In this document: in pieces, positions 6,585-49,344 of the stretch | Layout of the letters: each line of letters begins with the position of its first letter | Numbering within the stretch: the stretch's first letter is position 1 | Program-made: the position numbers and the translations under genes | The notes under the pieces: generated by a model | Told to the model about the DNA's origin: nothing | The model's database searches: none | The model's input: only the letters and a program-made list of their open reading frames with translations | Source of the DNA: Escherichia coli | Lineage (GTDB): Bacteria > Pseudomonadota > Gammaproteobacteria > Enterobacterales > Enterobacteriaceae | Length of the DNA: 64,000 nucleotides | NCBI RefSeq assembly: GCF_003019035.1 | Contig: NZ_CP027447.1 | Direction: 5' to 3' (one strand)

Positions 6585-7772
6585 ATGAACTTATCCCTAC
6601 GACGCTCTACCAGCGCCCTTCTTGCCTCGTCGTTGTTATTAACCATCGGACGCGGCGCTACGCTGCCGTTTATGACCATTTACTTGAGTCGCCAGTACAG
6701 CCTGAGTGTCGATCTAATCGGTTATGCGATGACAATTGCGCTCACTATTGGCGTCGTTTTTAGCCTCGGTTTTGGTATCCTGGCGGATAAGTTCGACAAG
6801 AAACGCTATATGTTACTGGCAATTACCGCCTTCGCTAGCGGTTTTATTGCCATTCCTTTAGTGAATAACGTGACGCTGGTGGTGCTCTTTTTTGCCCTTA
6901 TTAACTGCGCCTACTCCGTTTTTGCTACCGTGCTGAAAGCCTGGTTTGCCGACAATCTTTCCTCCACCAGCAAAACGAAAATCTTCTCAATCAACTACAC
7001 CATGCTCAACATTGGCTGGACCATCGGTCCGCCGCTCGGCACGCTGTTGGTGATGCAGAGCATCAATCTGCCCTTTTGGCTGGCAGCTATCTGTTCCGCG
7101 TTTCCCATGCTTTTCATTCAAATTTGGGTAAAGCGCAGCGAGAAAATCATCGCCACGGAAACAGGCAGTGCCTGGTCGCCGAAAGTTTTATTACAAGATA
7201 AAGCACTGTTGTGGTTTACCTGCTCTGGTTTTCTGGCTTCCTTTGTTAGCGGCGCATTTGCTTCATGCATTTCACAATATGTGATGGTGATTGCTGATGG
7301 GGATTTTGCCGAAAAGGTGGTCGCGGTTGTTCTTCCGGTGAATGCCGCCATGGTAGTTACGTTGCAATATTCCGTGGGCCGCCGCCTTAACCCGGCTAAC
7401 ATCCGCGCGCTGATGACAGCAGGCACCCTCTGTTTCGTCATCGGTCTGGTTGGTTTTATTTTTTCCGGCAACAGCCTGCTAATGTGGGGTATGTCAGCTG
7501 CGGTATTTACTGTCGGTGAAATCATTTATGCGCCGGGCGAGTATATGTTGATTGACCATATTGCGCCGCCAGGAATGAAAGCCAGCTATTTTTCCGCCCA
7601 GTCTTTAGGCTGGCTTGGTGCTGCGATTAACCCATTAGTGAGTGGCATAGTACTTACCAGTCTGCCGCCTTTCTCGCTGTTTATCATCTTAGCGTTGGTG
7701 ATCGTTGCTGCGTGGGTGCTGATGTTAAAAGGAATTCGTGCAAGACCGTGGGGGCAGCCCGCGCTTTGTTGA
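6585..7772 (+). CDS. ydeE: MFS transporter YdeE
   Basis: 395 aa, 12-TM MFS protein; sequence matches recalled E. coli YdeE. Confidence 0.9.
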   Translation: MNLSLRRSTSALLASSLLLTIGRGATLPFMTIYLSRQYSLSVDLIGYAMTIALTIGVVFSLGFGILADKFDKKRYMLLAITAFASGFIAIPLVNNVTLVVLFFALINCAYSVFATVLKAWFADNLSSTSKTKIFSINYTMLNIGWTIGPPLGTLLVMQSINLPFWLAAICSAFPMLFIQIWVKRSEKIIATETGSAWSPKVLLQDKALLWFTCSGFLASFVSGAFASCISQYVMVIADGDFAEKVVAVVLPVNAAMVVTLQYSVGRRLNPANIRALMTAGTLCFVIGLVGFIFSGNSLLMWGMSAAVFTVGEIIYAPGEYMLIDHIAPPGMKASYFSAQSLGWLGAAINPLVSGIVLTSLPPFSLFIILALVIVAAWVLMLKGIRARPWGQPALC

Positions 7773-7898
7773 TTTAAGTCGAACACAATAAAAATTTAAT
7801 TCAGCCTTCGTTTAGGTTACCTCTGCTAATATCTTTCTCATTGAGATGAAAATTAAGGTAAGCGAGGAAACACACCACACCATAAACGGAGGCAAATA

Positions 7899-7994
7899 AT
7901 GCTGGGTAATATGAATGTTTTTATGGCCGTACTGGGAATAATTTTATTTTCTGGGTTTCTGGCCGCGTATTTCAGCCACAAATGGGATGACTAA
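7899..7994 (+). CDS. mgtS: Small membrane protein MgtS (YneM), 31 aa
   Basis: Hand-translated ATG at 7899 after ggag SD: MLGNMNVFMAVLGIILFSGFLAAYFSHKWDD, stop TAA 7992-7994. Below the size cut-off of the ORF track. Confidence 0.75.
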   Translation: MLGNMNVFMAVLGIILFSGFLAAYFSHKWDD

Positions 7995-25500: not shown

Positions 25501-26037
25501 GATACTGAACGGGCGCGGCGGCAGGTTACCCACCACCACCGAGGCCAGATACTGTGAGGTGGTTTTGCCTTTAATGGTGATGTCTTTTTCCGTCACCCAG
25601 CCACCGTTACGTTGTATCTGAACCAGCAGGCGGACTTCCGACGGATTCCGGTCACCCTTTGAGGTGGTTTCCACCAGTGCCTGCACACCAAAGGTAAAGC
25701 GCAGACGGTCGATATTTGCAGACGTGATGGTGCGGGTTATCGGCGTGTCGTATTTCACTTCCGTACCCAGCACCGTCTCGGAGCCGGAGGATTCAAAACC
25801 CTCCGGCGGTGTCTGCTCCTGCTCACCGGCCCGGAACACCACCGTGACACCGGCGATGTTGGTATTCCCTTCGCTATCCAGCACCGGCGTACTGTTCAGC
25901 AGCACGCTTTTTAATCCATCCACCGGACCTTCAATCGGCCCTTCGCTGATGGCATCGATCACACTCAGTAACTGCGTGGATTTCAGGTTGTCCTTCGCTT
26001 CGCGCGGGGTATGCCCCTTACTGCTGCCTTTACCCAT
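22558..26037 (-). CDS. J: Tail tip / host specificity protein J
   Basis: ORF 22558..26082; from [33 protein letters not shown] the N-terminal two thirds match recalled lambda J; C-terminal ~300 aa diverge from my recollection of lambda J. Confidence 0.9.
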
Positions 26038-26097
26038 TCCTAACGCTCCATAAACGACAAAACCGCCCGGAGGCGGTTTCACATAAAATATTTTGCA

Positions 26098-26769
26098 TCA
26101 GCGACCAATCACCACAACCTGACCACCATCCCCTTCGTCTGCCGTGCTGATTTCCTGAGAAACCACACGTGACCCCACGCGCATTTTCCCGTACAGAACA
26201 GGCAGAACATTGCCCTGGGCAACCATGTTATCCAGTGAGGAGAAATAGGTGTTCTGCTTACCGTTATCCGTTGTCTGTGTACGGGGAGTTCTGGCTTTCG
26301 GTGCCAGCATCTGCGCCACACCACCAAGTACCATACTGGCACCGAGAGAAAACAGGATACCGGTCATACCACCGGCCCCAATGGCTGCCCCCCATGCTGC
26401 AAGGGTGGCTCCGGCAGTAAAGAATGATCCGGCAATGGCGGCAGCCCCCAGAACAATCTGGAATACGCCCCCTGACTTAGCCCCGGCGACTCTGGGAACA
26501 ATATGAATCACAGCGCCGTCAGGCAGAGTCTCATGTAACTGCGCCGTTAACCCGGACGTGCTGACGTCCCGCCCGGCAATCCGTACCTGATACCAGCCGT
26601 TGCTCAGTTTCTGACGAAACGCCGGGAGCTGTGTGGCCAGTGCGCGGATAGCTTCAGCCCCCGTTTTCACACGAAGGTCGATGCGGCGGCCAAATCGTTG
26701 TAAATCCCCGTAAAGGCAGATGCGCGCCATGCCCGGTGACGCCAGAGGGAGTGTGTGCGTCGCTGCCAT
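26098..26769 (-). CDS. I: Tail assembly protein I
   Basis: 223 aa; matches recalled lambda I (MAATHTLPLASPGMARICLYGDLQRFG...). Confidence 0.9.
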   Translation of the reverse strand: MAATHTLPLASPGMARICLYGDLQRFGRRIDLRVKTGAEAIRALATQLPAFRQKLSNGWYQVRIAGRDVSTSGLTAQLHETLPDGAVIHIVPRVAGAKSGGVFQIVLGAAAIAGSFFTAGATLAAWGAAIGAGGMTGILFSLGASMVLGGVAQMLAPKARTPRTQTTDNGKQNTYFSSLDNMVAQGNVLPVLYGKMRVGSRVVSQEISTADEGDGGQVVVIGR

Positions 26770-27410
26770 TTGTCGGTATACCTCTCTCGTTTGCTCAGTT
26801 GTTCAGGAATATGGTGCAGCAGCTCGCCATCACCACAGTAAATGGCGGCATGATTCGGCACCGATGAACCAAAACAGCACAGCAGCACATCGCCCGGTTG
26901 TGCTGATGACAACGGCACCTGATACAGCCCTGTGGCCTCCAGATTATCCAGATAGAGATTCTGACCGTGACGCCACCAGTCATCCTCGCGATGAAAATCC
27001 GGCATCTCAATCCCCGCCAGATGATAAGCATCCCGGAACAGCGTGTAACAGTCCGTCACCCCGTGTTCAAAGCGCCGCCCGGTGAGATGCGGCACACAGC
27101 GGAACTTATGAATCGTCCCCCGGCAGACCAGCCACCACGGCAAATCACTCTGCACCTGCAGCCGCCGGTCAGCCTCACTCAGCCAGGGCAGACCACCGGG
27201 GTGGCTGTGGACCAGCGCCACAATCTCACCCTGCATTTCTGCCTGCAGCCAGTCTTCCGGCGACATACGGAAATACGCCTCCGGCTCACCGGAGATATTC
27301 ACGCAGGGGAAATATCTTTCCCCCTCCGGTGTGCTTACCACGAAGCCGCACGACTCCGCTGGCGCACATCGCCGGGCGTGCGCCAGAATCGCTGATTCTG
27401 TCTGTGTCAT
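26667..27410 (-). CDS. K: Tail assembly protein K (JAMM/MPN plus NlpC/P60 domains)
   Basis: Overlaps I as in lambda; HSHPGG JAMM motif; matches recalled lambda K. Confidence 0.9.
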   Translation of the reverse strand: MTQTESAILAHARRCAPAESCGFVVSTPEGERYFPCVNISGEPEAYFRMSPEDWLQAEMQGEIVALVHSHPGGLPWLSEADRRLQVQSDLPWWLVCRGTIHKFRCVPHLTGRRFEHGVTDCYTLFRDAYHLAGIEMPDFHREDDWWRHGQNLYLDNLEATGLYQVPLSSAQPGDVLLCCFGSSVPNHAAIYCGDGELLHHIPEQLSKRERYTDKWQRRTHSLWRHRAWRASAFTGIYNDLAAASTFV

Positions 27411-27415
27411 GGGAT

Positions 27416-28114
27416 TTACTGCGAAAGTTTGTTAATGGAAAGGAAGCCGCCAAAGTTGCCGACGTTATTGCGGAACTTACAACCGCTCAGGCATTTGCTG
27501 CATTTATCCTTCGTGATATCGGACGTTGGCTGGTCATATTCATCCGCGACAGCCGGACCGCTATAACCGCACTCGTCACCGCGATAGGTCCAGGTGCAGG
27601 TGTTGGCCAGCATGATACGTCCCGGAAAAACAGCGCCATCCGTTTCCGTCGGCGTGGACAGTACAAAGGAGGCACTCACCGCGCTCAGTTCGCTGCACTG
27701 CTCAATGCGCCAGCGGCTGATCACCTCCTGCTCCGGATCGGCGTAACTGTTTCCGTTGACGAAGTTCACCGCATCCAGAAAACGGGCGTAAACCTTACGC
27801 CGGACCACCGTTCCGCCGACCAGACTCTGCATATCTTCCGCCATCCCGGTGACCATACCGTACAGGTTAGAAACCGTCAGCGTGGGGCGCGTACTGGTGC
27901 CTTTGCCATTCAGTTCAAAACCGCTCCCCTGAATGGGATACGGCTGATACTGTCGCCCCTGCCAGGTGACCGGCTCACCTTTTTCGTTCTGCTCATTACA
28001 GAAAAAATAACGTTCTCCACCGACCTCTGTCAGGTCGATTTCCCAGAGCACCACGCTGGCCGACTGCTCCGCACGGGTGCATTCATTCAGTGTTTCCTGC
28101 CGGATATCCTGCAT
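27416..28114 (-). CDS. L: Tail tip protein L
   Basis: 232 aa; matches recalled lambda L. Confidence 0.9.
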   Translation of the reverse strand: MQDIRQETLNECTRAEQSASVVLWEIDLTEVGGERYFFCNEQNEKGEPVTWQGRQYQPYPIQGSGFELNGKGTSTRPTLTVSNLYGMVTGMAEDMQSLVGGTVVRRKVYARFLDAVNFVNGNSYADPEQEVISRWRIEQCSELSAVSASFVLSTPTETDGAVFPGRIMLANTCTWTYRGDECGYSGPAVADEYDQPTSDITKDKCSKCLSGCKFRNNVGNFGGFLSINKLSQ

Positions 28115-28443
28115 CAGTTCACCACCTGTTCAAACTCTGCGCTGAACTCAACACGCAGCATACTGACCCGCGACGACCATTTTGCGCAGGTCACCTTTAT
28201 CTGCCGCCACTCATAAGGCGGCGTCCACAGAAAGGCTTTCCAGCCCCCGTGCTCTTCCAGAAACGACTCCAGTACCGTGGCCTCCTCACGGGGGACAGAA
28301 AGCGTCACGCTGTACGTTTTCAGGTTGGCATTCAGCCCGGCAGGCGCTCGCTGGGAATAGCCATCACCAAAGCGCACCTTTCTTACAGAAGGGGCCGAAG
28401 CCACATCCATACCGGGTTTCACTTTCCAGCGGAAGGTTTTCAT
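28114..28443 (-). CDS. M: Tail tip protein M
   Basis: 109 aa; matches recalled lambda M. Confidence 0.9.
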   Translation of the reverse strand: MKTFRWKVKPGMDVASAPSVRKVRFGDGYSQRAPAGLNANLKTYSVTLSVPREEATVLESFLEEHGGWKAFLWTPPYEWRQIKVTCAKWSSRVSMLRVEFSAEFEQVVN

Positions 28444-31019
28444 CGTCCACCTCCGGAGAACAGGCCACCATCACGCATCTGTGTCTGAATTTCATCACGG
28501 GCACCCTTGCGGGCCATGTCATACACCGCCTTCAGAGCAGCCGGACCTATCTGCCCGTTCGTGCCGTCGTTGTTAATCACCACATGGTTATTCTGCTCAA
28601 ACGTCCCGGACGCCTGCGACCGGCTGTCAGCCAGACTGCCCGGTGTACCGACATAACCACCGGTGGCATAGCCGCGCATCAGCCGGTAGAGATTCCCCAC
28701 GCCAATCCGGCTGGTTGCCTCCTTCGTGAAGACAAATTCACCACGGTGAACAATCCCCGCTGGCTCATATTTGCCGCCGGTTCCCGTAAATCCTCCGGTT
28801 GCAAAATGGAATTTCGCCGCAGCGGCCTGAATGGCTGTACCGCCTGATGCGGATGCGCCGCCACCAACAGCCCCGCCAATGGCGCTGCCGATACTCCCGA
28901 CAATCCCCACCATTGCCTGCTTAAGCAGAATTTCTGTCATCATGGACAGCACGGAACGGGTGAAGCTGCGCCAGTTCTGCTCACTGCCGGTCAGCATCGC
29001 TGCCATATTCTGTGCAATACCATCAAAGGTCTGCGTGGCTGCACTTTTTACCTGCGACATACTGTCCGTGGCGCTCTCTTCCCACTCACTCCAGCCGGAC
29101 TTCAGGCCTGCCATCCAGCTCCCGCGAAGCTGGTCTTCAGCCGCCCAGGTCTTTTTCTGCTCTGACATGACGTTATTCAGCGCCAGCGGATTATCGCCAT
29201 ACTGTTCCTTCAGGCGCTGTTCCGTGGCTTCCCGTTCTGCCTGCCGGTCAGTCAGCCCCCGGCTTTTCGCATCAATGGCGGCCCGTTTTGCCCGTTGCTG
29301 CTGTGCGAATTTATCCGCCTGCTGCGCCAGCGCGTTCAGGCGCTCCTGATACGTAACCTTGTCGCCAAGTGCAGCCAGCTGGCGTTTGTACTCCAGCGTC
29401 TCATCTTTATGCGCCAGCAGGGATTTCTCCTGTGCAGACAGCTGGCGACGTTGCGCCGCCTCCTCCAGTACCGCGAACTGACTCTCCGCCTTCCACAAAT
29501 CCCGGCGCTGCTGGCTGATTTTCTCATTTGCTCCGGCATGCTTCTCCAGCGTCCGGAGTTCTGCCTGAAGCGTCAGCAGGGCAGCATGAGCACTGTCTTC
29601 CTGTCGATCGCCTGCAGACACTTTCACGCCGGACTGCTTCGGCTTTTTCAGCGTCGCTTCATAATCCTTTTTCGCTGCCGCCATCAGCGTGTTGTAATCT
29701 GCCTGCAGGATTTTCCCGTCTTTCAGTGCCTTATTCAGTTCTTCCTGACGGGCGGTATATTTCTCCAGCGGCGTCTGCAGGCGTTCGTAAGCCTTCTGCG
29801 CCTCTTCGGTATATTTCAGCCGTGATGCCTCAGACTCGGCCCAGTCCTTTGCTGCCATCTCTCTGGCCTTTTCAAGATCGGCCTGCAACGTGGCGGCTGA
29901 AAGCCCAAGTTGCGCATTCGCTCTGTCCTCCCATGCTCCCCGGAGATTGGCAAGAAATGCGGATGTTTTACCGCGCCGGTGGCTCCGGCTCTGATACCAC
30001 TGCCATTTTTTGTCCGCCTCATCAAAAGCCTTTTCTGCTTTCTCCAGCATTTCCCGGGCAGTGTCCGGGCGACCAATATCCAGCACCGAATCCCACATGG
30101 ATTTGAATGCCCGTGCTGTCCTGTCTGCCCAGGTCTCCAGCGTGCCCATGTTCTCTTTCAGGCGGCGGGTCTGGTCATCAAACCCTTTCGTTGCGGCCTC
30201 GTTCGCCGCCTGCAATGCCCCGGCTTCATCTCCGGAACGCTGCAACTGAGCAACATACGCAATCTGCTCCGCCGTCACGTTATGGAACTGACGTGCCATC
30301 GCTGTCAGTCCCGACGTCGGGTCTGTGGTCAGCTTCCCGAAGGCTTCAGCGACCTTGTCCACCTCCACGCCGGATGCAGAGGAGAAACGCGCCACACTCT
30401 GGCTGATCGCCTCAAACTGCTCACCACCACGCACACCGGCATTCACCAGCGCCGTCAGTGACTCGCTGGTCTGGTTAAACGTCAGCCCTGCCGCCTGCCC
30501 GGCTCTGGACAGGGCCAGAATACGATCTGCCGTCAGTCCCGCCTGATTGCCGGAAAGGACCAGCGTTTTGTTGAAATCGGACAGGGTTGAGTTGCCCTGA
30601 TACCAGGCATACGCCAGCGCACCGGTCGCCACCGCCAGCGAGGTGGCCCCCACCATCGGCAGGGTGATCGCACCGGCAAGCCCCCTGAACATGGGGATCA
30701 TCCCGCCGAAGGAGTCCTTAACCTGACCACCCTGTTGCAGCAGGATCAGCCACGGACTTTGCCCGCCTGCAAGCTGCGTGGCCACGTCGGTGAACTGTGC
30801 AGGCAGCATACGCATGGCGGCTTTGTACTGCCCGACGGAAATCCCCGCTTTCTGTGCAGCCAGCGCCTGTCGGCTCAGCGACTGTTCAACGACTGCCGCT
30901 GTTTTTTTCGCATCACTTTCCGTACCGGAAAAATGACGCCTGACTCTGGCCATCTGCTCGTCAAATCTGGCCGCATCCAGACTCAAATCAACGACCAGAT
31001 CGCCTACCGGTTCAGCCAT
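28440..31019 (-). CDS. H: Tail tape measure protein H
   Basis: 859 aa; matches recalled lambda H. Confidence 0.9.
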   Translation of the reverse strand: MAEPVGDLVVDLSLDAARFDEQMARVRRHFSGTESDAKKTAAVVEQSLSRQALAAQKAGISVGQYKAAMRMLPAQFTDVATQLAGGQSPWLILLQQGGQVKDSFGGMIPMFRGLAGAITLPMVGATSLAVATGALAYAWYQGNSTLSDFNKTLVLSGNQAGLTADRILALSRAGQAAGLTFNQTSESLTALVNAGVRGGEQFEAISQSVARFSSASGVEVDKVAEAFGKLTTDPTSGLTAMARQFHNVTAEQIAYVAQLQRSGDEAGALQAANEAATKGFDDQTRRLKENMGTLETWADRTARAFKSMWDSVLDIGRPDTAREMLEKAEKAFDEADKKWQWYQSRSHRRGKTSAFLANLRGAWEDRANAQLGLSAATLQADLEKAREMAAKDWAESEASRLKYTEEAQKAYERLQTPLEKYTARQEELNKALKDGKILQADYNTLMAAAKKDYEATLKKPKQSGVKVSAGDRQEDSAHAALLTLQAELRTLEKHAGANEKISQQRRDLWKAESQFAVLEEAAQRRQLSAQEKSLLAHKDETLEYKRQLAALGDKVTYQERLNALAQQADKFAQQQRAKRAAIDAKSRGLTDRQAEREATEQRLKEQYGDNPLALNNVMSEQKKTWAAEDQLRGSWMAGLKSGWSEWEESATDSMSQVKSAATQTFDGIAQNMAAMLTGSEQNWRSFTRSVLSMMTEILLKQAMVGIVGSIGSAIGGAVGGGASASGGTAIQAAAAKFHFATGGFTGTGGKYEPAGIVHRGEFVFTKEATSRIGVGNLYRLMRGYATGGYVGTPGSLADSRSQASGTFEQNNHVVINNDGTNGQIGPAALKAVYDMARKGARDEIQTQMRDGGLFSGGGR

Positions 31020-31446
31020 ACCGGACTCCTCCCGCGATCCCTTCTGATACTGTCATCAGCATTACGTCATCCTCCGTCATGTCCGCCACATCCGGGGAAG
31101 CGGGGATAACTTCATTCCCGTCCGGGCCAAAACGAACGCCTCCGGCAAGCCCTGCCGCTTTCTGCATCAGCACATCATCTTCAGGCTCTTCGTCAGCCTC
31201 GCGCCGGTTCAGCAGACTGAAATCCAGCGGATGCATATCCGGATCGCTGAAAAACAGGCTGAGCACGGTGTACGTCAGCCCGGAAAAGTGCATATCCAGC
31301 AGAACATCATGAAAATAATGGGTACTGTAAAAGCGGTGCCAGTCGGCATACTCCGTGGATGACATCCCGGCAAGCATGGCGCGCCAGTCGGGTCGCCCCA
31401 TCTCACGCGCCAGTTTCAGGGCAAAACTCAGCTCACCGTCGAACAC
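31012..31446 (-). CDS. T: T portion of the G-T tail assembly chaperone (expressed by -1 frameshift from G)
   Basis: ORF in the -1 frame begins at the slippery site at the end of G; matches recalled lambda T. Confidence 0.8.
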   Translation of the reverse strand: MFDGELSFALKLAREMGRPDWRAMLAGMSSTEYADWHRFYSTHYFHDVLLDMHFSGLTYTVLSLFFSDPDMHPLDFSLLNRREADEEPEDDVLMQKAAGLAGGVRFGPDGNEVIPASPDVADMTEDDVMLMTVSEGIAGGVRYG

Positions 31447-31850
31447 TTTCCCGCAGAAACAGGCTCTGCAGGCCCGGCGTCCTCTGCCTGTTCAGGAGCA
31501 TCATTCACCACAAACTCAGACATACCGGACAGCCGGTACACCACGTTTTCAGCATGAGAAATTGCCTCTGTGGGCCAGGTGGTAAGCACTTCCTGCTCAA
31601 TCTGTTTAACGGCTTCATTCATGGACGGCATCTGCGTCTTCTGCGGATGGTTATGCCACAGGGACATCGCCACCAGAAACGCGCCGGTTCTGATGGCGTC
31701 TTCCACAGTAAACTTCCGGTTGCTGTCTGACTCCGCCTGTTCTGCCTGCCGTTTCATCAGGGCGAGATGCTCAATGCGCTGCAGGGCTGACAGTTCAGAA
31801 AGCGTGACGGTCACACCGTTATGTTCAAATGATTCGGTTTTCAGGAACAT
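31428..31850 (-). CDS. G: Tail assembly chaperone G
   Basis: 140 aa; matches recalled lambda G. Confidence 0.9.
   Translation of the reverse strand: MFLKTESFEHNGVTVTLSELSALQRIEHLALMKRQAEQAESDSNRKFTVEDAIRTGAFLVAMSLWHNHPQKTQMPSMNEAVKQIEQEVLTTWPTEAISHAENVVYRLSGMSEFVVNDAPEQAEDAGPAEPVSAGKCSTVS
31446..31452 (-). promoter_or_regulatory. Programmed -1 ribosomal frameshift slippery heptamer G GGA AAG (G to G-T)
   Basis: Minus strand reads ...TCT GCG GGA AAG TGT TCG... in the G frame; same heptamer as the lambda G-T frameshift site. Confidence 0.75.
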
Positions 31851-31865
31851 CGCTGACTCTCCGGA

Positions 31866-32606
31866 TTAACTGGCGGTGACGGTAATTTCTGCAACCGCAG
31901 CAAACTCACCATTACCGGATACAACCGGAATGTTGACCTTGCCTGCAGCAACGCCGTTCACGGTGATGGTCATACCACTGACCGACACGGTGGCTTTTGT
32001 TTTATCCGCAGACACCGCACGAAAGCTCTTGTCGGTTACACCCTCCGGCTGGAAGGCCACGGTCAGCGTGGTGCTCTGCCCTTTCACCACCGAGGTGCTG
32101 GCAGGCGTCACGGTCATGCCGGTTGCCGCTGTTACCGTGCTGCGATCTTCTGCCATCGACGGACGTCCCACATTGGTGACTTTCACCGTGCGGGTGATCA
32201 CTTCCTTCGCCGTCACCGCCTTACCGATACTGCTGACCCAGCCACGGAACACATCGACCGTGCCGTTCGGGAAGCGGATTTTATAGGCACGGGTATCGCC
32301 TTCATTAAACCACGCCAGCAGCGCCTGCTGCCCCTGCTCTCCGGGCATCCACGCCAGCGTGAAGCTGGTATCTCCGGCAGATTTCTGCCCCTGCCCGGTC
32401 GCAGTCCAGTCTGCATCTTCATCATCGAGATAGCTGTCGTCATAGGACTCAGCGGTCAGTTCGCCGGGCGTCAGGTCTTTAACTTTTGCCAGACGCGACC
32501 AGTCAACGTCTGAAAGCGGATTCGCATAAGGGTCACCGCTCCCCTTATAAACCCACAGGGTGGTCCCGGCCCCTTTCACCGGCATTGTAGGATTTGGTAC
32601 AGGCAT
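31866..32606 (-). CDS. V: Major tail tube protein V
   Basis: ORF 31866..32636; from [22 protein letters not shown] matches recalled lambda V, including the C-terminal Ig-like domain. Confidence 0.9.
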
Positions 32607-32613
32607 AGCGTCC

Positions 32614-33009
32614 TCACATTTCATAGGTAATGACATAAGTCAGATCGGCTGAACTCCACAGGCCCGCATCATCGTCGCGCCGGTAGTCATAGCCGCTGGC
32701 CACCATACTGGTGATCAAATCTGACAGTGCCGGGATATCGCTCATCACCGGATAAATCCGGGACTCCATCCACGCATCCAGCTCTGAATCCGGCACCTGA
32801 GCAGGCAGGAAAACTTCGATATGCAGCTCCGCCTGCCAGGTATCGCTGTCCAGCTCTTCGCCCGTGTATTCAGCGCCGGTGAGATAAACGGCAACTGCCG
32901 GAAAATCCGCCTCATCAAAAACAGCGGGGCGACCATCAAAAAACGTCGCCCCGGTGTCATGCTTCTCCAGTGCATCCAGTACGGCTGCACGGAGTTCAGT
33001 ATGTTTCAT
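32614..33009 (-). CDS. U: Tail terminator protein U
   Basis: 131 aa; matches recalled lambda U. Confidence 0.9.
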
Positions 33010-33584
33010 CGCTTTATTACCATCCTCAGTTGATGCTGCAGCGCATAGCCCAGCTCTTTCGGAAGACGTTCACGCCGTATCCGCTCAATATTTTGTTTAA
33101 ACGCCGTGGTCAGCGGCACCGCCATCGGGATTTTCACCACATCAATGGGGTAACGGTTTTTCCCGGCCACACGCTGCATGACATGCCACCGGCCATTTTT
33201 CAGTTGCTGAATAAACGCGCCGGGAATACGACGGTTACCCACCACAAGCACGCTGCCGCCACCTTTCAGGGATGAACGCTGCCCCTTTTTACGACGCCTG
33301 CGGCGCGAAAGGACAACCCGCGCATTACCCAGCTTGATTACGGGCAAATCCCCCCGGTTAACTTTGATTCTGGCCTGCGGATTTTTGACCGTGGCCCTTT
33401 TCAGCCTGGCCCTTTCCTTTACCAGTTTCCGGCGTACCTTTGTCTCACGGGCAACCTGTGACGCCGACTGCGATATCGCGGATGAAGCAACGCGGTTAAT
33501 GGCCATTGCGGCGGCACCAGGCACCGCCGTTTTGCTGATACGGCTGAGGTTTTCAACGGCCTGCTCAAGACCTTTTATGGCCAT
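33006..33584 (-). CDS. Z: Tail completion protein Z
   Basis: 192 aa; matches recalled lambda Z. Confidence 0.9.
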   Translation of the reverse strand: MAIKGLEQAVENLSRISKTAVPGAAAMAINRVASSAISQSASQVARETKVRRKLVKERARLKRATVKNPQARIKVNRGDLPVIKLGNARVVLSRRRRRKKGQRSSLKGGGSVLVVGNRRIPGAFIQQLKNGRWHVMQRVAGKNRYPIDVVKIPMAVPLTTAFKQNIERIRRERLPKELGYALQHQLRMVIKR

Positions 33585-33595
33585 ACATCCCCCTT

Positions 33596-33949
33596 TCAGC
33601 GGCGACGGTTAACGGCAGGCGGTACGCCCCGTCCAAGCCAGAGATGACAACTTCCGCCATCATCCGGCGAAACCCGATCTACCCAGAAATTTTCCTCACC
33701 GATGGTCAGCGTGTCTCCACGCCGCAGCTGCCGCACCTCATCAGTCCGGACAAACAGGGACGGGCTGGAGCCTTCAACACGCACGCCCTGTCCGGCATAG
33801 CTGATATTTTCAGGATCATCAAAAACACCACGTATCACAGCACCGGACTGCTCACCGGATGTCATGGTGGCTGACGTTCCCATGTACCCGCGTATCGTTT
33901 CATCGGCGCGGGCAATGGCAGCATCGAACAGGTTATCGAAATCAGCCAC
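33596..33949 (-). CDS. FII: Head-tail connector protein FII
   Basis: 117 aa; matches recalled lambda FII. Confidence 0.9.
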   Translation of the reverse strand: MADFDNLFDAAIARADETIRGYMGTSATMTSGEQSGAVIRGVFDDPENISYAGQGVRVEGSSPSLFVRTDEVRQLRRGDTLTIGEENFWVDRVSPDDGGSCHLWLGRGVPPAVNRRR

Positions 33950-33960
33950 AGCGCCTCCCG

Positions 33961-34356
33961 TTATTGCATTCTGGCCAGGCCGCGCTCTGTCATTTCAGCT
34001 GCCACACCGGCAGAGACACGGAACGCCGTTCCCGGCAGCACAAATGCCACAGCCTCATCCCGCGTGGCGTGAAGTGCATCAGTATGCAGCGTCACCAGTG
34101 CCACAACCGTGACCAGATCAGCCGTATCAGTCACGGTATCCGGCTGCGCTGATACCACCTCATTTTCATGTCCGGTCAGCGCATTTTCCGGGCTGACAGA
34201 TGTGTCCTGACCAGCAGCGTCATCCGTGTCATCAAGCTCCTCTTCCAGCTCTGCCACACGGAGTGCCAGTTCTTCTTTCGTCCCCGTCAGGCTGACATCA
34301 CGGTTCAGTTGCTCACCCAGCACCTGAAGACGGGCAATCAGTTCATCTTTCGTCAT
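33961..34356 (-). CDS. FI: DNA packaging protein FI
   Basis: ORF 33961..34395; from MTKDELIARLQVLGEQLNRDVSLTG matches recalled lambda FI. Confidence 0.85.
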   Translation of the reverse strand: MTKDELIARLQVLGEQLNRDVSLTGTKEELALRVAELEEELDDTDDAAGQDTSVSPENALTGHENEVVSAQPDTVTDTADLVTVVALVTLHTDALHATRDEAVAFVLPGTAFRVSAGVAAEMTERGLARMQ

Positions 34357-34397
34357 GGACTCCTCCACAGAGAGAAAATGGCCCCGAAGGGCCATGA

Positions 34398-35423
34398 TTA
34401 CGCCAGTTGTACGGACACGAACGCATCAGGGTCAGCCAGCAGCATCAGCGGTGCTGACTGAATCATGGTGAACTCACGCGCCGGATCGCCGGTGGTCACC
34501 CAGTTTTTCGGGTAGCGGGCAGAGGCGTTAATACCTTCGCGCTGTGCGTCCGCATCCTGAATGCAGCCATAGGTGCGCAGACCGCGTGCCTGAGTGTTCC
34601 CCAGCACCATCGTGTTGTCCGGCAGGAAGTTCTTTTTGACGTCGTTTTCCACGTACTGTCCGGAATACACGACGATCGCCGTATCGCCATACATCCCCTT
34701 ATAGGACACCGCTTCGCCCAGGTCTTTTACCGCTGTCTCCAGCTCGGAATTAGAGCCGCGACGGGTATCCAGCTTCTCCTTGACGGCTTTGAAGGAACGG
34801 AACAGCGCCCAGCCTTTCGGATCAAACACGATGATATTCACCACACCGCTGGCGTTCAGCGCGTAGGCTTCGATATCGTCGGTCGGGTCATACGTGGACT
34901 TGTCACGCTTGCTCCACTCCGTACCGCCGGACTGCGTGATGTTGTTCGCCACACTGCGGCCCATATCCACTTCAACCGGATCGAAGGCTTCACCGGTCAT
35001 GGTATATTTGCCCTTAAGCACGGCAGAAACGGCCTGCATCTCTTCGACCTGAGCAATGGCCAGCTCTTCGTCTCGCATGTTCTGCAGGATGATGCGACGG
35101 CGGCGGTAAGCCGGGTCCGCCAGATTCTGTGGATCTTCATCCGGCAGGCGACGCAGGGTCATCTGCGGATTCACCTCATGCTTAGGCTTGACATATCCCG
35201 GTGTAAATTCAGAGGTGGAGCCGCCACGGGAGCGGATAACCTCACCGGAAACAATCGGCGAAACGTACAGCGCCATGTTTACCAGTCCCGGAATTTGTGA
35301 GAGATAGACTTTCTCCGTGGTGAAGGGATAGCTCTCACGGAAAAAGAGACGCAGAAACAGCGGATCAAACTTAAATTTCTTCTCATTTGCCGCCAGCAGC
35401 TGGGCGGTTGTGTACATCGACAT
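34398..35423 (-). CDS. E: Major capsid protein E
   Basis: ORF 34398..35450; from MSMYTTAQLLAANE matches recalled lambda E. Confidence 0.9.
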   Translation of the reverse strand: MSMYTTAQLLAANEKKFKFDPLFLRLFFRESYPFTTEKVYLSQIPGLVNMALYVSPIVSGEVIRSRGGSTSEFTPGYVKPKHEVNPQMTLRRLPDEDPQNLADPAYRRRRIILQNMRDEELAIAQVEEMQAVSAVLKGKYTMTGEAFDPVEVDMGRSVANNITQSGGTEWSKRDKSTYDPTDDIEAYALNASGVVNIIVFDPKGWALFRSFKAVKEKLDTRRGSNSELETAVKDLGEAVSYKGMYGDTAIVVYSGQYVENDVKKNFLPDNTMVLGNTQARGLRTYGCIQDADAQREGINASARYPKNWVTTGDPAREFTMIQSAPLMLLADPDAFVSVQLA

Positions 35424-37140: not shown

Positions 37141-40821
<3,681 letters not shown>

Positions 40822-40847
<26 letters not shown>

Positions 40848-41367
40848 TCAGCAACCCCGGTATCAGTTCATCCAGCGCGGCTGCTTTGTTCATGGCTTTG
40901 ATGATATCCCGTTTCAGGAAATCAACATGTCGGTTTTCCAGTTCCGGAAAACGCCGCTGCACCGACAGGGGAATCCCGTCGAGAATACTGGCAATTTCAC
41001 CTGCGATCCGCGACAACACGAAAGTACAGAATGCGGTTTCCACCACTTCAGCGGAGTCTCTGGCATTCTTCAGTTCCTGTGCGTCGGCCTGCGCACGCGT
41101 AAGTCGATGGCGTTCGTACTCAATAGTCCCTGGCTGGAGATCTGCCTCGCTGGCCTGCCGCAGTTCTTCAACCTCCCGGCGCAGCTTTTCGTTCTCAATT
41201 TCAGCATCCCTTTCGGCATACCATTTTATAACGGCGGCAGAGTCATAAAGCACCTCATTACCCTTGCCACCGCCTCGCAGAACGGGCATTCCCTGTTCCT
41301 GCCAGTTCTGAATGGTACGGATACTCGCACCGAAAATGTCAGCCAGCTGCTTTTTGTTGACTTCCAT
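40822..41367 (-). CDS. Nu1: Terminase small subunit Nu1
   Basis: 181 aa; matches recalled lambda Nu1. Confidence 0.9.
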
Positions 41368-41369
41368 TG

Positions 41370-41600
41370 CTCATTCCACGGACAAAAACAGAGAAAGGAA
41401 ACGACAGAGGCCAAAAAGCTCGCTTTCAGCACCTGTCGTTTCCTTTCTTTTCAGGGGGTATTTTAAATAAAAACATTAAGTTACGACGAAGAAGAACGGA
41501 AACACCTTAAACCGGAAAATTTTCATAAATAGCGAAAACCCGCGAGGTCGCCGCCCCGTAACCTGTCGGATCACCGGAAAGGACCCGTAAAGTGATAATG
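41370..41600. other. Lambda-type cos region (cosB, cosN at 41545-41556, cosQ)
   Basis: Plus strand carries aggtcgccgccc (reverse complement of the lambda 12-nt cohesive end GGGCGGCGACCT) flanked by sequence I recognise as the joined lambda left and right ends. Confidence 0.85.
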
Positions 41601-41755
41601 ATTATCATCTACATATCACAACGTGCGTGGAGGCCATCAAACCACGTCAAATAATCAATTATGACGCAGGTATCGTATTAATTGATCTGCATCAACTTAA
41701 CGTAAAAACAACTTCAGACAATACAAATCAGCGACACTGAATACGGGGCAACCTC

Positions 41756-41989
41756 ATGTCAACGAAGAACAGAACCCGCAGAACAACAACCCGCAACATC
41801 CGCTTTCCTAACCAAATGATTGAACAAATTAACATCGCTCTTGAGCAAAAAGGGTCCGGGAATTTCTCAGCCTGGGTCATTGAAGCCTGCCGCCGGAGAC
41901 TGTGCTCAGAAAAAAGAGTTTCTTCTGAAGCAAACAAAGAAAAGAGTGACATTACTGAATTGCTCAGAAAACAGGTCAGACCAGATTGA
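41756..41989 (+). CDS. Hypothetical ribbon-helix-helix (Arc/CopG-like) protein in the lambda right-end region
   Basis: 77 aa; TRNIRFPNQMIEQINIALEQKGSGNFSAWVIEACRRRL fits the RHH beta-strand/helix pattern. Confidence 0.5.
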   Translation: MSTKNRTRRTTTRNIRFPNQMIEQINIALEQKGSGNFSAWVIEACRRRLCSEKRVSSEANKEKSDITELLRKQVRPD

Positions 41990-42046
41990 AGCAATTTAGA
42001 TAATCGTGCAGACTACGCCCCCTCATATCACATGGAAGGTTTATCT

Positions 42047-42457
42047 ATGGATCAGGTAGTCATTTTTAAACAAATATTTGATAAAGTTCGAAACGATTTA
42101 AACTATCAATGGTTTTATTCTGAGCTAAAACGTCACAATGTCTCACATTACATTTACTATTTAGCCACAGAGAATGTTCATATTGTATTAAAAAATGATA
42201 ATACAGTGTTATTAAAGGGCCTAAAAAACATTGTGTCTGTCAAATTTTCAAAGGATAGGCATCTTATAGAAACGACCTCTAATAAGCTGAAATCCAGAGA
42301 GATCACATTTCAGGAATACAGAAGAAACCTTGCTAAAGCAGGAGTTTTTCGGTGGGTTACAAATATCCACGAACAAAAAAGATATTACTATACCTTTGAT
42401 AATTCATTACTATTTACTGAAAGCATCCAGAAAACTACACAGATCTTACCACGCTAA
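42047..42457 (+). CDS. ydfO: Prophage protein YdfO (DUF1398 family)
   Basis: ORF 42032..42457; from [27 protein letters not shown] matches recalled YdfO (136 aa). Confidence 0.7.
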
Positions 42458-42608
42458 ACCATAACGTCCGGCTTCTCTCACTCCTGAGCCGGACTGCATT
42501 GGTTTAATAAAAACCATCAACAATTGTGATTTAGATATTCGGAACCATTCAAATATAACAAAACCCCGTAAAAACGAGGTTTATGGATAAATTTTATTAT
42601 TGAATACA

Positions 42609-42782
42609 TCAGATTAAATTAATCTTGACATCATAGCTTTCAAGACCCGTCATTTTTTCCCGTGCGGTAAACTGAATACTGGTAACTTCTTTCCCGGTCT
42701 TTTTCTTAAGTTCAATAATTTTTTTTGTTATATATTCAGAAATATCTGCTTCTGCTTTTGTTTTTAAGTTTTCAATATTCAT
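42609..42782 (-). CDS. gnsB: GnsB-like small protein (Gns family)
   Basis: Hand-translated 57 aa: MNIENLKTKAEADISEYITKKIIELKKKTGKEVTSIQFTAREKMTGLESYDVKINLI; below the ORF-track cut-off. Confidence 0.7.
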   Translation of the reverse strand: MNIENLKTKAEADISEYITKKIIELKKKTGKEVTSIQFTAREKMTGLESYDVKINLI

Positions 42783-42953
42783 CATTTCCTCTTTTAGTCT
42801 GTTATGACTTTCCAGTTACACAGTAAGTCGATTATATGGTGCAAACGTGTAAAAGATAAGATGAAACATCGCAATAATCAACATACGATAGTCTAAATTT
42901 TACACAAACAGACAAAGAGAATTTTCCTGAATTATCAATGCAATAGCATCAAA

Positions 42954-43184
42954 TCAACTCAAGAGACTTATTGCTGCTTCCAGAATTTCTTCTGAAGTAA
43001 CATGTCGATCCGCGGCTACATAAATGACTTTATGATCTCCGGTCAGAGATGGAAACCCTGCGGCCATTACAGTAAGGTGTGTTTTTTCGCCATTTGGATA
43101 TTCACGCATGATGGTGTTAACTCCAGTCATCGCTGGCACTACCACTGCTGGTTCAGAGTTAAAAAAAACTATGATTTTTTTCAT
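42954..43184 (-). CDS. Hypothetical protein (ynfN-like position between gnsB and cspI)
   Basis: ORF 42954..43226; probable start MKKIIVFFNSEPAVVVPAMTG...; 76 aa; no recognisable motif. Confidence 0.4.
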   Translation of the reverse strand: MKKIIVFFNSEPAVVVPAMTGVNTIMREYPNGEKTHLTVMAAGFPSLTGDHKVIYVAADRHVTSEEILEAAISLLS

Positions 43185-43455
43185 GATGTTACCGTAGTAT
43201 GTGAGTATCCATCGAATAGACACCAAGCAAAAAAGCTCCCGAAGGAGCCTTCATTTTCACTTTTTTAAATCCAACGACAGACGGCTGGCATTTAAGTATT
43301 GTGAAATATTATCAAATGTAATCATCATTGATTTACAAAAGATACATTTTGCCCCGAAAGGATTCATGTCAGAAACATCAAAAGATGATGTTCTATACTG
43401 GGAACCATGACAACACGGGCATCTAAAGTGAATATGGTTTGTAATATTGTCTACC

Positions 43456-43668
43456 TCAAAGCGCCACTACATGAACAGCGGCAGGACCTTTAGGTCCGTT
43501 CTCAATACCAAATTCAACTTCCTGATTCTCAGTTAATGTTTTGAAATCGTTGCTCTGAATTGCTGAGAAATGGACAAACACATCTTTGCTGCCATCTTTC
43601 GGCGTGATGAAACCAAAACCTTTTTCAGGGTTAAACCATTTCACTAAACCAGTCATTTTGTTAGACAT
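43456..43668 (-). CDS. cspI: Cold shock protein CspI
   Basis: 70 aa CspA-family protein with RNP motifs KGFGFI and VFVHF; matches recalled CspI. Confidence 0.85.
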
Positions 43669-44030
43669 AATTATTACCTTTTGAAGAAATTAGCCCTTGG
43701 GCAGAATGGTCCGAAAAAAAATATCAGAGAGAAAAACCAACAAGGAAATCTCAAGAGGTACAAATAATAAAATTATAACAATGACTGCTTCAGATAAATT
43801 TGTAACAAACCAGAACACCATTAACGCATGATTAACCACCCATAGCAAGGATTACTTTTGTAAAGAAAAACACAGCAATGAAAGAATAGCTTTATTTATT
43901 AATAAAACGTGTCATTCTGATTAAGACCTTTTATCTTACCCTTAAGATTTCAGGAATTTTGGCTCATGGAAGAGTCCTTTTTATTTAAATTTTACATTCC
44001 GCGATGTAAATGTTCCGATTTAATATTACC

Positions 44031-45054
<1,024 letters not shown>

Positions 45055-45058
<4 letters not shown>

Positions 45059-45366
45059 AGATATTTATGATGAGGACGCTCGTGCTTATTGGCAGGATTT
45101 TCAATCTTAAAGGAGTACTGATGCTGCAGATAAGACTCAACTTTTTCTGACAATTTTTCTGCTACTTCCAGGAAGACTTGCCGGACGCTCCTTCTGGCTG
45201 CTGCCTCATAAAACTCCAGCGCAGCTCCTTCAACACGGTCCATGGCGACATCCAGGTCAAAAATTTCACCGTCAAAGCGTTCTTTGTCCTGTAAGGCTAC
45301 AGTTACCGTAACTTTATTCTCAAAATTACGGACTCCTTTCACAACCAGTTCATAGTCTTGAGTCAT
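45055..45366 (-). CDS. ydfR: Prophage protein YdfR (DUF1327)
   Basis: 103 aa; matches recalled YdfR; sits between holin and endolysin genes. Confidence 0.8.
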
Positions 45367-45370
45367 TGGA

Positions 45371-45586
45371 TTACTCTCCTCTCGCAGCCTTACGCCTGTC
45401 TTCTTTAATCTTGAAATAAAGATTTGTCAGATACGTCAGCAGGCCAAAAACCAGGCTACCCAGCACACCGATTGCAGCCCACTGTGACGGAGTTACTTTA
45501 TCGAGTAACTGCAATGCCCAGAAACCAGCATTACCCGCCGATGTGCCATAGGCAACACCTGTTGTTAACTTATCCATTGATTTCAT
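45371..45586 (-). CDS. essQ: Pinholin (S21-like class II holin) EssQ
   Basis: ORF 45371..45661; from [28 protein letters not shown] the 71 aa protein resembles the phage 21 pinholin. Confidence 0.8.
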
Positions 45587-47489: not shown

Positions 47490-48242
47490 TTATCTCGTCA
47501 CCTTCCTCAATTGCGCTTCCGCGTATGCTTCTTCCTGCCAGCACTTTGTTACCAGTTTACCAATGACGTCCGCATACCCCTTATACCACTGATAATCGGT
47601 CAGGTCTGGTACCAGCTTCTGGACATGACGTCGTGCCAGCGTGGTCGGTAAACGACTAAACCGGTTTCCATTACAACGCCCACAAATCTTATATACCGGT
47701 ACGCCATGAAACCGGGTTCTTTTTTCATCCAGAACAATCCCTTTACCCTTACACCCTCTGCACGCTGTGCTGGCTTCGCCCTTACCATGGCAATGCTGAC
47801 ATAGTTCCTTCACCCATTCTTCCTTGATTACAGATTCCCCGCGTCTGTAGTGTTTCACCACTTCGCGCAATACATTATAAAATCCCGTACCTGAACAATG
47901 CTCACAGCGAGCCTTACTTGCCGCAGACCTGGAGTAATCAGCAAAGGCAAAACTCACGAGGTAAGGAATAATCTGTAACCGGATTTCTTCACTCAATTTG
48001 TTCAATGTCGGGTTATCCAGTGCCATCGCGTAATTTAGCAGGCCTTCAATCGCAAACTGAGGGTCCTGAACACCAACTTTTGCCAGAAATAAGGCCAACC
48101 CAAGTGGTGCTTTCGACTGCACCATCCCCTGCGCTGCCATTACATCCGTAATTGTTAAACAACCGGTGCCTGTCGCTGGAGCGTCATCGCTCAATTTTGG
48201 AGATTTTGGGGAGTAATATTTTGGTAAGGCTTCAAGGTTCAT
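47490..48242 (-). CDS. quuQ: Late gene antiterminator Q (QuuQ)
   Basis: ORF 47490..48272; from MNLEALPKYYSPKSPKLS the 250 aa protein matches recalled QuuQ; multiple CxxC zinc motifs. Confidence 0.85.
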   Translation of the reverse strand: MNLEALPKYYSPKSPKLSDDAPATGTGCLTITDVMAAQGMVQSKAPLGLALFLAKVGVQDPQFAIEGLLNYAMALDNPTLNKLSEEIRLQIIPYLVSFAFADYSRSAASKARCEHCSGTGFYNVLREVVKHYRRGESVIKEEWVKELCQHCHGKGEASTACRGCKGKGIVLDEKRTRFHGVPVYKICGRCNGNRFSRLPTTLARRHVQKLVPDLTDYQWYKGYADVIGKLVTKCWQEEAYAEAQLRKVTR

Positions 48243-48255
48243 GCTCGTTCTCCAC

Positions 48256-49344
48256 TTACGCCAGTACGCCAATTGTCAGCGCGCGATCGATAAAACGAAA
48301 TATCAGCTCCAGTTGGGAGCCATACTTATCTTCAAATGCCACTGTATCCGTATGCAGCTCGTTGTGATGCTTTCTGCACAAAGGCAACACAAAGAGATCA
48401 TGTGCTTTTGTTCCCATTCCGCCCTGCCCGTGACCAATCAGATGATGCGGATCGTCGGCTGGCATACCGCAGCAAGCACACGGCTGTGTCTTAACCCAAC
48501 GTGTGTATTTCTCCTTAACCCAGCGGCGACGTTTAGGCAGCTTCATGAAAGATTCCGGAGACTCTGGATCAACGGTGATGCTTACCACCGTCTTTTCCTG
48601 TGGTGATTTTTGTTGCTGGTGGGCGTAAGGCAACGGTGCAAGATTTTTTGTGCGTTGTTTCAATATGCTGGTGGCGGTCTGCTCTCCCGGTACGATGTCG
48701 CTTTCGCGGTACACCGAGCAGATTTTTTCCGCTGGTAATCCCAGCGAACGACGCGATACAGCCTCAGGTAGTGCATCCACCACCTGATTGCAGACCGCCC
48801 ACCAGGATAATTCAGCCAAAGATAATTCCCGCTCCTGCGTACCGCTTATTGCGTGACGGATGACGTCAATCACCCATGCTGTCAGATTTTGTTGAGCAAG
48901 CAGCTCCAGTGATTCCGATGTCTGGTCACGCAGTTGGTTGTCGCAGTGCCAGCACAACACCATTGCGCCGGTACCATAACGGTGAATGACTGTTTCAGTG
49001 TGATGGTAATCGCCATTAGGCCACTGGCAGGATGTAACATGACGTAATAGCCAGTCAGACAATGCGCCAACGCCGCCAGCAGCACGAATCACCCGTTCGT
49101 TACTAAAAAACGGCAGCAATGTTTTGTCTTCCGCCAGCGGCTGGCGAACGGCAGGAACGACTCCGGATGGCAGATTACGCATGCTTTTTGGTTCCGGTTC
49201 CACCAGCACTCGAGGATTATGAAATATCTGTATGGATTCACGGCCCGGCTTAAGGACCACCAGCCCAAGCTCAGGCACCAGAACAGGTCTAAGTAATACC
49301 CGCACGTTACCTCCAGATCCGTTGCTGGAAAGTGCGGGACGCAC
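48256..49344 (-). CDS. ydfU: Prophage protein YdfU (DUF968)
   Basis: 362 aa ORF; C-terminal CACCGMPADDPHHLIGHGQGGMGTKAHD cysteine/histidine cluster; start uncertain (overlaps the upstream 92 aa ORF). Confidence 0.7.
   Translation of the reverse strand: MRPALSSNGSGGNVRVLLRPVLVPELGLVVLKPGRESIQIFHNPRVLVEPEPKSMRNLPSGVVPAVRQPLAEDKTLLPFFSNERVIRAAGGVGALSDWLLRHVTSCQWPNGDYHHTETVIHRYGTGAMVLCWHCDNQLRDQTSESLELLAQQNLTAWVIDVIRHAISGTQERELSLAELSWWAVCNQVVDALPEAVSRRSLGLPAEKICSVYRESDIVPGEQTATSILKQRTKNLAPLPYAHQQQKSPQEKTVVSITVDPESPESFMKLPKRRRWVKEKYTRWVKTQPCACCGMPADDPHHLIGHGQGGMGTKAHDLFVLPLCRKHHNELHTDTVAFEDKYGSQLELIFRFIDRALTIGVLA

Follow-up and report, generated by a model that had tools for sequence, protein, structure and literature searches.

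ynfO and ydfO of a Qin-type Escherichia coli prophage: lineage-specific juxtaposition of a lambdoid backbone gene and a cargo gene

We analysed a 64,000-nt stretch of Escherichia coli DNA (hereafter, the window) and, within it, two small genes of a prophage that lie on the plus strand, ynfO (41756..41989) and ydfO (42032..42457). Their pairing is a lineage-specific juxtaposition of a phage backbone gene and a cargo gene. As regards function, we lean towards two separate modules, a reading to which we give somewhat better than an even chance: YnfO would be an autoregulating backbone regulator of the ribbon-helix-helix (RHH) type, and ydfO an optional cargo gene. Both ORFs were found, on the plus strand, exactly where the original prediction had placed them, i.e. 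a 77-aa ORF starting at 41756 with ydfO after it, and both are already catalogued as E. coli prophage genes.

Setting of the locus and identity of ynfO

By mapping the window onto annotated genomes, we found that it contains a nearly full-length Qin-type lambdoid prophage of about 47 kb (~17000-63990). E. coli core genes fill the window up to ~17 kb, and the prophage integrase near 63.99 kb marks the far end; the insertion site is ydfJ. The order of the prophage genes is tail fibre, tail, head, terminase, cos, cargo island and lysis genes, followed by a Q-like antiterminator, relBE/hokD, dicABC and the integrase. The Qin prophage of K-12, a remnant of the same phage type, has ynfO and ydfO as well, their proteins being named in RefSeq 'YlcI/YnfO family protein' and 'DUF1398 domain-containing protein', respectively; unlike it, the prophage considered here has intact terminase, head and tail genes. 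The 1.1-kb stretch of DNA with the two genes had a match in 4698 of 5426 genomes. Among the E. coli genomes listed, it was 99.9-100% identical to annotated ynfO-ydfO, and several complete genomes among these matches had it at 100% identity under the RefSeq names ynfO and ydfO.

To the left of cos lie, both on the minus strand, the gene of the large terminase subunit (38922-40847) and nu1/nohA (40822..41367), the gene of the small subunit (Pfam Phage_Nu1, E=9.2e-101) and the divergent neighbour of ynfO across cos; in the annotated twin locus L001 this nu1 equivalent is called nohA, 'DNA-packaging protein'. The 12-nt cohesive-end sequence, cosN (41545-41556), reads aggtcgccgccc, the reverse complement of GGGCGGCGACCT, the cohesive end of lambda. 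From 41557 on, there is a base-for-base alignment between the window and the right end of the lambda-type phage O276 (linear record). To the right of ydfO there are gnsB, ynfN and cspI and then the lysis cassette (rzpQ, rrrQ, ydfR and essD, ~44031-45586, mapped from L001), all on the minus strand. The predicted location of the two genes, between cos and lysis, is hence correct, with cosN on the left and the lysis genes on the right.

The same prophage is interrupted in E. coli SCU-316 by a satellite of ~11 kb, inserted in the major capsid gene (24184-35178 of that locus, L097). The satellite has an integrase, HTH regulators, a primase, and capsid and decoration genes of its own, as well as a solitary opposite-strand 64-aa RHH gene annotated as 'HicB family antitoxin'. 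In the window the capsid gene is uninterrupted, the point equivalent to the SCU-316 insertion being at ~35180.

The 77-aa YnfO belongs to the YlcI/YnfO family (DUF3950), being matched by Pfam DUF3950 (PF13132; E=2.7e-21, 75.6 bits, cut-off 25), by NCBIfam NF041551 YlcI_YnfO_N (36.6 bits, cut-off 30) and by PHROG 949 (E=6.3e-34). It is a real gene under purifying selection, beyond a chance ORF, since over codons 1-50 the comparison with the homologues of Stx phages gave a pN/pS of 0.10-0.19 (0.46-0.67 synonymous and 0.06-0.10 non-synonymous differences per site). The family is small: among 1.84 billion representative proteins, searched exhaustively with HMMER, there were only 120 relatives, many of which are error-ridden copies of lambda DNA, while ~20 are truly divergent (30-50% identity). 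The divergent relatives keep the motif T-x-K-x-I-R-F-P-h-x-L-I-x-x-I ... N-F-S-A-W-V-x-E-A-C. Literature searches with YnfO, YlcI, DUF3950, DUF1398, 2HH8 and lambdap78 gave no functional study, and no expression data were found there for ynfO or for the corresponding 64-aa ORF of lambda.

Predicted fold of YnfO

YnfO is very probably a ribbon-helix-helix protein, judging mainly from structure prediction. The RHH core corresponds to residues 10-50 (41783..41905, plus strand), with a strand at 10-18, a helix at 19-32 and a second helix from residue 37. Since the RHH fold is an obligate dimer, we modelled YnfO as a tethered dimer, i.e. two copies joined by a 25-residue Gly-Ser linker, with an alignment of 20 homologues built in the same way. 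In the best model the pLDDT of the core was ~80-87, with strand 10-18 and helices 19-32 and 37-73 in each half; a pLDDT of ~70 was reached by only 2 of the 5 models, and the dimer is imposed by the linker. The model has no strands besides residues 10-18 of each copy, which must therefore be paired together. The predicted structure therefore shows both hallmarks of the fold, a protomer made of a strand and then two helices and an antiparallel ribbon in the dimer. Single-sequence AlphaFold prediction was poor (pLDDT 56.7), yet it gave the same two helices.

A Foldseek search with the model returned TraY, a tandem RHH protein, with a probability of up to 0.99, with E-values that were not significant. 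The best structural matches were Arc and Mnt of phage P22, CopG, and the RHH domains of ParD, MazE, HicB and TraY. Like Arc, Mnt and CopG, YnfO is predicted to have a strand-helix-helix protomer with strands paired in the dimer; at the level of sequence, however, no solved RHH protein matches it significantly. Precisely, YnfO and a 21-member profile gave no significant sequence match when searched against all PDB chains. The best of the profile matches was the CopG-family chain 9kkd, in register and with a weak E-value of 0.56, and Pfam RHH_6 matched one of the 21 family members (E=0.092). The DUF3950 part of one family member, P0190, matched the PHROG profiles 'Arc-like repressor' (6.8e-4) and 'HicB-like' (8.3e-5). 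On the whole, the model, the fold matches and the PHROG profiles support the Arc/CopG-like reading of the 77-aa ORF that had been made from its residue pattern.

Two other differences concern the biological setting. The YnfO family has no conserved partner-binding tail, and ynfO lies at the lysis/packaging junction, unlike the RHH genes of the P22 immI region or of toxin-antitoxin operons.

Module junction, distribution and the ydfO cargo

The original prediction also supposed that the RHH ORF is present in the right end of lambda and may be an old phage gene. A tblastn search bore this out: positions 48142-48303 (complement) of lambda encode residues 1-54 of YnfO at 98% identity. The whole lambda ORF has 64 codons (48109-48303 complement; 200-394 in our locus L002) and corresponds to no annotated feature in NC_001416 or J02459; phage O276 annotates the same ORF as a 64-aa YlcI/YnfO family protein. 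Since the right end of lambda has this ORF, we considered the RHH gene as old phage backbone and not as new cargo. Lambda shares with the window the cos-proximal non-coding DNA, RHH residues 1-49, which are identical, and the orientation of the gene against the late operon. In contrast, the C-terminal tail of the lambda protein is shorter than that of YnfO and different from it. Lambda also has a DUF1398 protein, p78, which is 79% identical to YdfO. However, in lambda and in DLP12 the RHH and DUF1398 genes are kept apart by an opposite-strand gene of ~580 bp (p79 and ybcW, respectively), and bor comes after; the order is 64-aa ORF-p79-p78-bor in lambda and ylcI-ybcW-ybcV-borD in DLP12. The annotated 177-aa lambda p78 is probably over-extended at its N-terminus, because the homology to YdfO begins ~36 codons in.

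In a three-way DNA alignment, the window, lambda and phage ev243 were near-identical over the stretch that begins at cos and ends with codon 48 of the RHH gene. A mosaic junction follows at codons ~48-50 (41898..41905), and past it there are three different continuations: the YnfO tail and ydfO in the window; another tail, p79, p78 and bor in lambda; and, in ev243, a small ORF after the RHH gene and then bor. Just past the junction the GC content drops from about 0.43-0.47 to 0.31-0.36. On the other side of it, ydfO follows ynfO on the same strand, as predicted, after a gap of 42 nt from the ynfO stop (41989), or of 57 nt if the start is that of RefSeq, which is the second Met (42047) and gives a protein of 136 aa instead of the 141 aa of the longest ORF.

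We then considered the distribution of the two genes. A scan of viral contigs with the family alignment gave only near-identical loci (96-100%) and hence no test of distant co-occurrence, for which we used phage records and individual contigs instead. A DUF1398 ORF was present 45-48 nt (in one case 142 nt) downstream of the RHH gene in all of the 80 viral contigs with the 77-aa allele. Outside this allele the picture is different. In the Stx-type phages YYZ-2008 and JLK-2012 the RHH gene is alone, flanked on one side by Rz (or a TonB-like gene) and on the other by an HNH endonuclease gene, beyond which there is a terminase of a different type; no same-strand gene comes after it, the next one being a minus-strand spanin or TonB-family gene. 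Conversely, phage Tritos has DUF1398 and ybcW without the RHH gene and in a different cos region, and ycgX of K-12 is a lone DUF1398 gene beside bluR. The expected co-occurrence therefore holds within the 77-aa allele and fails across the family, in which the genes are separate both ways.

One alternative is a type II toxin-antitoxin system, in which YnfO, as the RHH antitoxin, would bind and counteract a toxic YdfO and also repress the operon of the two genes. Adjacent co-directional small genes, antitoxin-first order, a short gap and an RHH N-terminus would all suit it, as would the invariable downstream DUF1398 ORF of the 77-aa allele. However, the genes do not travel together, since by tblastn the RHH gene was in 155 GenBank phage records and DUF1398 in 43. 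The RHH gene is alone in phages of the Stx and ev243 types and in satellites, DUF1398 is alone at ycgX and in Tritos, and the ~580-bp opposite-strand gene separates the pair in lambda and DLP12. The conservation of YnfO stops at about residue 50, and the tails vary in length and sequence and are replaced at the mosaic junction, so that there is no conserved toxin-binding segment where one would sit.

Also in favour of such a system, ydfO was called 'essential' in K-12, in published TraDIS data only. In the same data the insertion index of ynfO was 0.13 and that of ylcI 0.36, i.e. insertions are tolerated in both genes. The low index of ydfO (0.029) is common to its AT-rich neighbours gnsB (0.046), ynfN (0.051) and cspI (0.085), which indicates a regional insertion-poor effect. 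The 'essential' call is probably explained by this island, which is poor in insertions as a whole (41950-44050), and we rejected the essentiality of ydfO. Moreover, YdfO was produced for the determination of its NMR structure (2HH8), and its overexpression was reported to raise oxidative-stress resistance, according to earlier work as cited in PMC4077768. No toxicity of YdfO was reported in the literature searched, and the PADLOC defence models gave no match for YnfO, YdfO, GnsB or a 90-aa ORF at 42954-43226.

Given the separate distribution, the intervening gene of lambda and DLP12, the backbone boundary at codon 48 and the tolerated insertions, ynfO and ydfO are unlikely to be a toxin-antitoxin pair, and we consider the full version of this scheme very improbable. 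More in general, the idea that the two genes form one functional unit, be it a toxin-antitoxin pair or a regulator and its dedicated partner, was not supported, in view of the junction at codon 49-50, the change in composition, the opposite-strand gene of lambda and the tolerated insertions. The constant adjacency in the 77-aa allele (80/80) may leave room for a functional link in this lineage.

Under the preferred reading of backbone and cargo, ydfO belongs to an AT-rich cargo island (41950..44050) that comprises ydfO, gnsB, ynfN, ynfR, ymcF and cspI, as defined from composition, from the annotation of L001 and from Pfam matches to GnsAB and CSD. The GC content is 27-36% in most 200-bp windows of the island (up to about 0.42) and 0.31-0.36 in its ydfO part, compared with 0.50-0.58 in the terminase genes, 0.43-0.47 in cos and the RHH core and ~0.48 in the lysis genes. 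A moron is marked by three features, namely a composition that is atypical, a presence that varies between related phages and a place between modules, and ydfO has them all. In the same way as the lambda morons bor and lom, which are cargo genes with expression from the prophage, the ydfO island is AT-rich, variably present and placed between functional modules, and ydfO shares with them also the direction of reading, against the late operon.

YdfO matches DUF1398 (PF07166) with E=1.7e-46 (157.5 bits, cut-off 22) and is identical at 140 of 141 positions to the E. coli 'hypothetical protein ydfO' of the NMR structure PDB 2HH8. Lambda p78 was found to be non-essential by CRISPRi (PMC10695390), and lambda recombinants carrying ybcV::Kan were active and viable (PMC3945230). 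DUF1398 proteins bear the labels 'putative envelope protein' and 'head protein' (PHROG 413), neither of which is supported, the gene being optional and dispensable.

Some regulatory inputs seem to be specific to ydfO. A palindrome resembling a PdhR box, AACAGGTCAGACCAGAT (41970..41986), lies at the 3' end of ynfO and upstream of ydfO, and it is the SELEX PdhR site that was reported for K-12 ynfO>ydfO (PMC7660256). Its core, AGGTCAGACCAGATTGAA, also precedes p78 in lambda (~970-990 in L002, lambda type), so the palindrome belongs to the DUF1398 module and not to the RHH gene. In a pdhR mutant, mRNA was lower by about 10-fold for ybcV and 9-fold for ybcW (PMC7660256). An imidazolium ionic liquid induced ydfO 12-fold on arrays and 116-fold by qPCR (PMC4077768). 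Directly after the ydfO stop, a perfect 8-bp stem-loop, GTCCGGCT-N13-AGCCGGAC (42466..42494, plus strand), is a possible transcript end, as read from the letters, and has no strong T run; the terminator scan did not report it.

Convergent with ydfO is gnsB (42609-42785, minus strand), which matches the Pfam family 'GnsA/GnsB toxin' with E=3.3e-35. If a toxin-like gene were sought in this region, gnsB would be a better-founded candidate than ydfO. The 90-aa minus-strand ORF mentioned above contains ynfN and gave no family match.

The lysis/packaging junction and the proposed role of YnfO

In all the six lambdoid loci inspected, the RHH gene lies where the lysis and packaging genes meet and runs opposite to the late operon, and it keeps this position even where the terminase is of a different type and an HNH gene is present. 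Upstream of ynfO, on the cosQ side of cos, the non-coding stretch from cosN to the start codon (41557..41755) must hold the putative promoter and operator of the gene. It is the same as in lambda throughout, and in the alignment with ev243 all columns from ~41633 to the ATG are identical. A scan of 41300-42700 for consensus sigma-70 promoters found no site.

By a repeat search and a separate scan we obtained a candidate operator, the imperfect inverted repeat ATCAATTATGACG / CGTATTAATTGAT (41654..41686), with a perfect 8-bp core, ATCAATTA-N17-TAATTGAT. It is also present in lambda and ev243 and not in the Stx-phage type. The 198 bp that separate cosN from the ynfO start contain 10 copies of ATCA/TGAT, compared with 3.6 +/- 1.6 in dinucleotide-shuffled sequences; this motif was chosen after being seen, and the inverted repeat is a post hoc candidate likewise. 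Part of this ATCA/TGAT signal sits in the palindrome TGATAATGATTATCA adjoining cosN. In the Stx-phage type the DNA upstream of the RHH gene is the HNH gene; it is unrelated to that of the lambda type and has no ATCA enrichment.

The fixed position of the gene could point to an action on the packaging junction itself. In one version, YnfO would block read-through or leaky transcription of the terminase genes, or occupy the DNA by cos, in the lysogen, and the lysogen chromosome would thereby be protected from cos cleavage; in another, it would modulate packaging. The position of the RHH gene is indeed invariant across two unrelated types of terminase module, the cos-proximal non-coding DNA is extremely conserved, and in satellite-like elements DUF3950 is fused to a small-terminase-type HTH. 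However, in the Stx-type phages the RHH gene and the small terminase gene have an HNH gene between them. In HK97, cos is upstream of the small terminase gene. Cosmids and in vitro packaging work without the 64-aa RHH gene, which we counted against an action on packaging. The high conservation of the cos-proximal DNA may simply come from recombination stimulated by cos; De Paepe et al. saw such recombination between lambda and DLP12 (PMC3945230), and it alone can homogenise this DNA. We consider an action of YnfO on the packaging junction as rather unlikely.

The fusions in question are P0190 (L003, 4714-5103) and P0208, in which DUF3950 is joined to a HTH of the small-terminase type (PHROG 641 and 51; weak match to Pfam Terminase_2). 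The element that encodes P0190 is satellite-like and has primase and integrase genes. We also considered whether P0190 resembles the PICI packaging protein Rpp and rejected this: there was no PDB sequence match, and a heading of the review by Murialdo and Feiss gives Rpp a 'wing', not an RHH.

Homologues of YnfO with 39-41% identity have a comparable position, each as the only opposite-strand gene, in Pasteurella Pmp7, in the capsid-forming satellite vB_KppS-Ant and in a primase/integrase element. These satellite-type homologues are preceded by three GGTG-N6-7-CAC palindromes around a likely promoter, together with a CACGTCAA motif. Such an arrangement of palindromes is typical of an autoregulated repressor. 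In both vB_KppS-Ant and Pmp7, the annotation has long ORFs on the minus strand that overlap, on the opposite strand, a well-conserved ORF of DUF3950 (6997-7971 and 7364-7567 in locus L088; 4435-5109 and 4778-5032 in locus L089, with DUF3950 from the ATG at 4853). The long ORFs, one of which is labelled 'transcriptional repressor', seem to be a short downstream gene that was called too long.

These clear homologues in vB_KppS-Ant, Pmp7 and the primase/integrase element raise the possibility of helper-satellite cross-talk, in which the DUF3950 regulators of lambdoid phages and of satellites would share, or compete for, related operators. In support of this, besides the CACGTCAA motif upstream of the satellite homologues, CCACGTCAA is found upstream of ynfO (41641-41649). 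However, what is shared is a single 8-mer, which is absent in the Stx-phage type and whose distance from the start codon differs, and the DNA-facing strand residues differ (N14 in YnfO and K, G or Y in the others). On balance, cross-talk of this kind appears quite unlikely.

A wider formulation takes DUF3950 as a dedicated class of solitary RHH regulators, read against the long operon in which they lie, that would be conserved at the lysis/packaging junction of lambdoid phages with any type of terminase, would be shared with satellites, at times as a fusion to a small-terminase HTH, and would act at that junction or in the interplay between phage and satellite. The job of such a class would be more than the control of cargo, for instance competition for related operators or, in lysogens, the silencing of cos cleavage or of leaky terminase expression. 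We regard both the class and this job as doubtful.

The reading that we prefer, of backbone regulator and optional cargo, can be put as follows. ynfO would be a lambdoid backbone gene at the lysis/packaging junction, transcribed against the late operon, and its product would dimerise via the N-terminal beta-strand and presumably bind DNA as a transcription regulator. In the lysogen, YnfO would most likely repress its own promoter, and it may also gate leftward transcription into the downstream cargo. In this Qin-type phage, ydfO would be an AT-rich moron that came to lie downstream by chance, with regulatory inputs of its own, the PdhR-like box and the reported induction by stress.

The practical value of these results is small. 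They remove a tempting but weak toxin-antitoxin reading, and they indicate that the reference records of lambda omit a conserved and selected 64-aa gene beside cos. If the packaging junction or the interplay of phages and satellites were indeed where the RHH protein acts, a regulator would be added to the best-studied phage.
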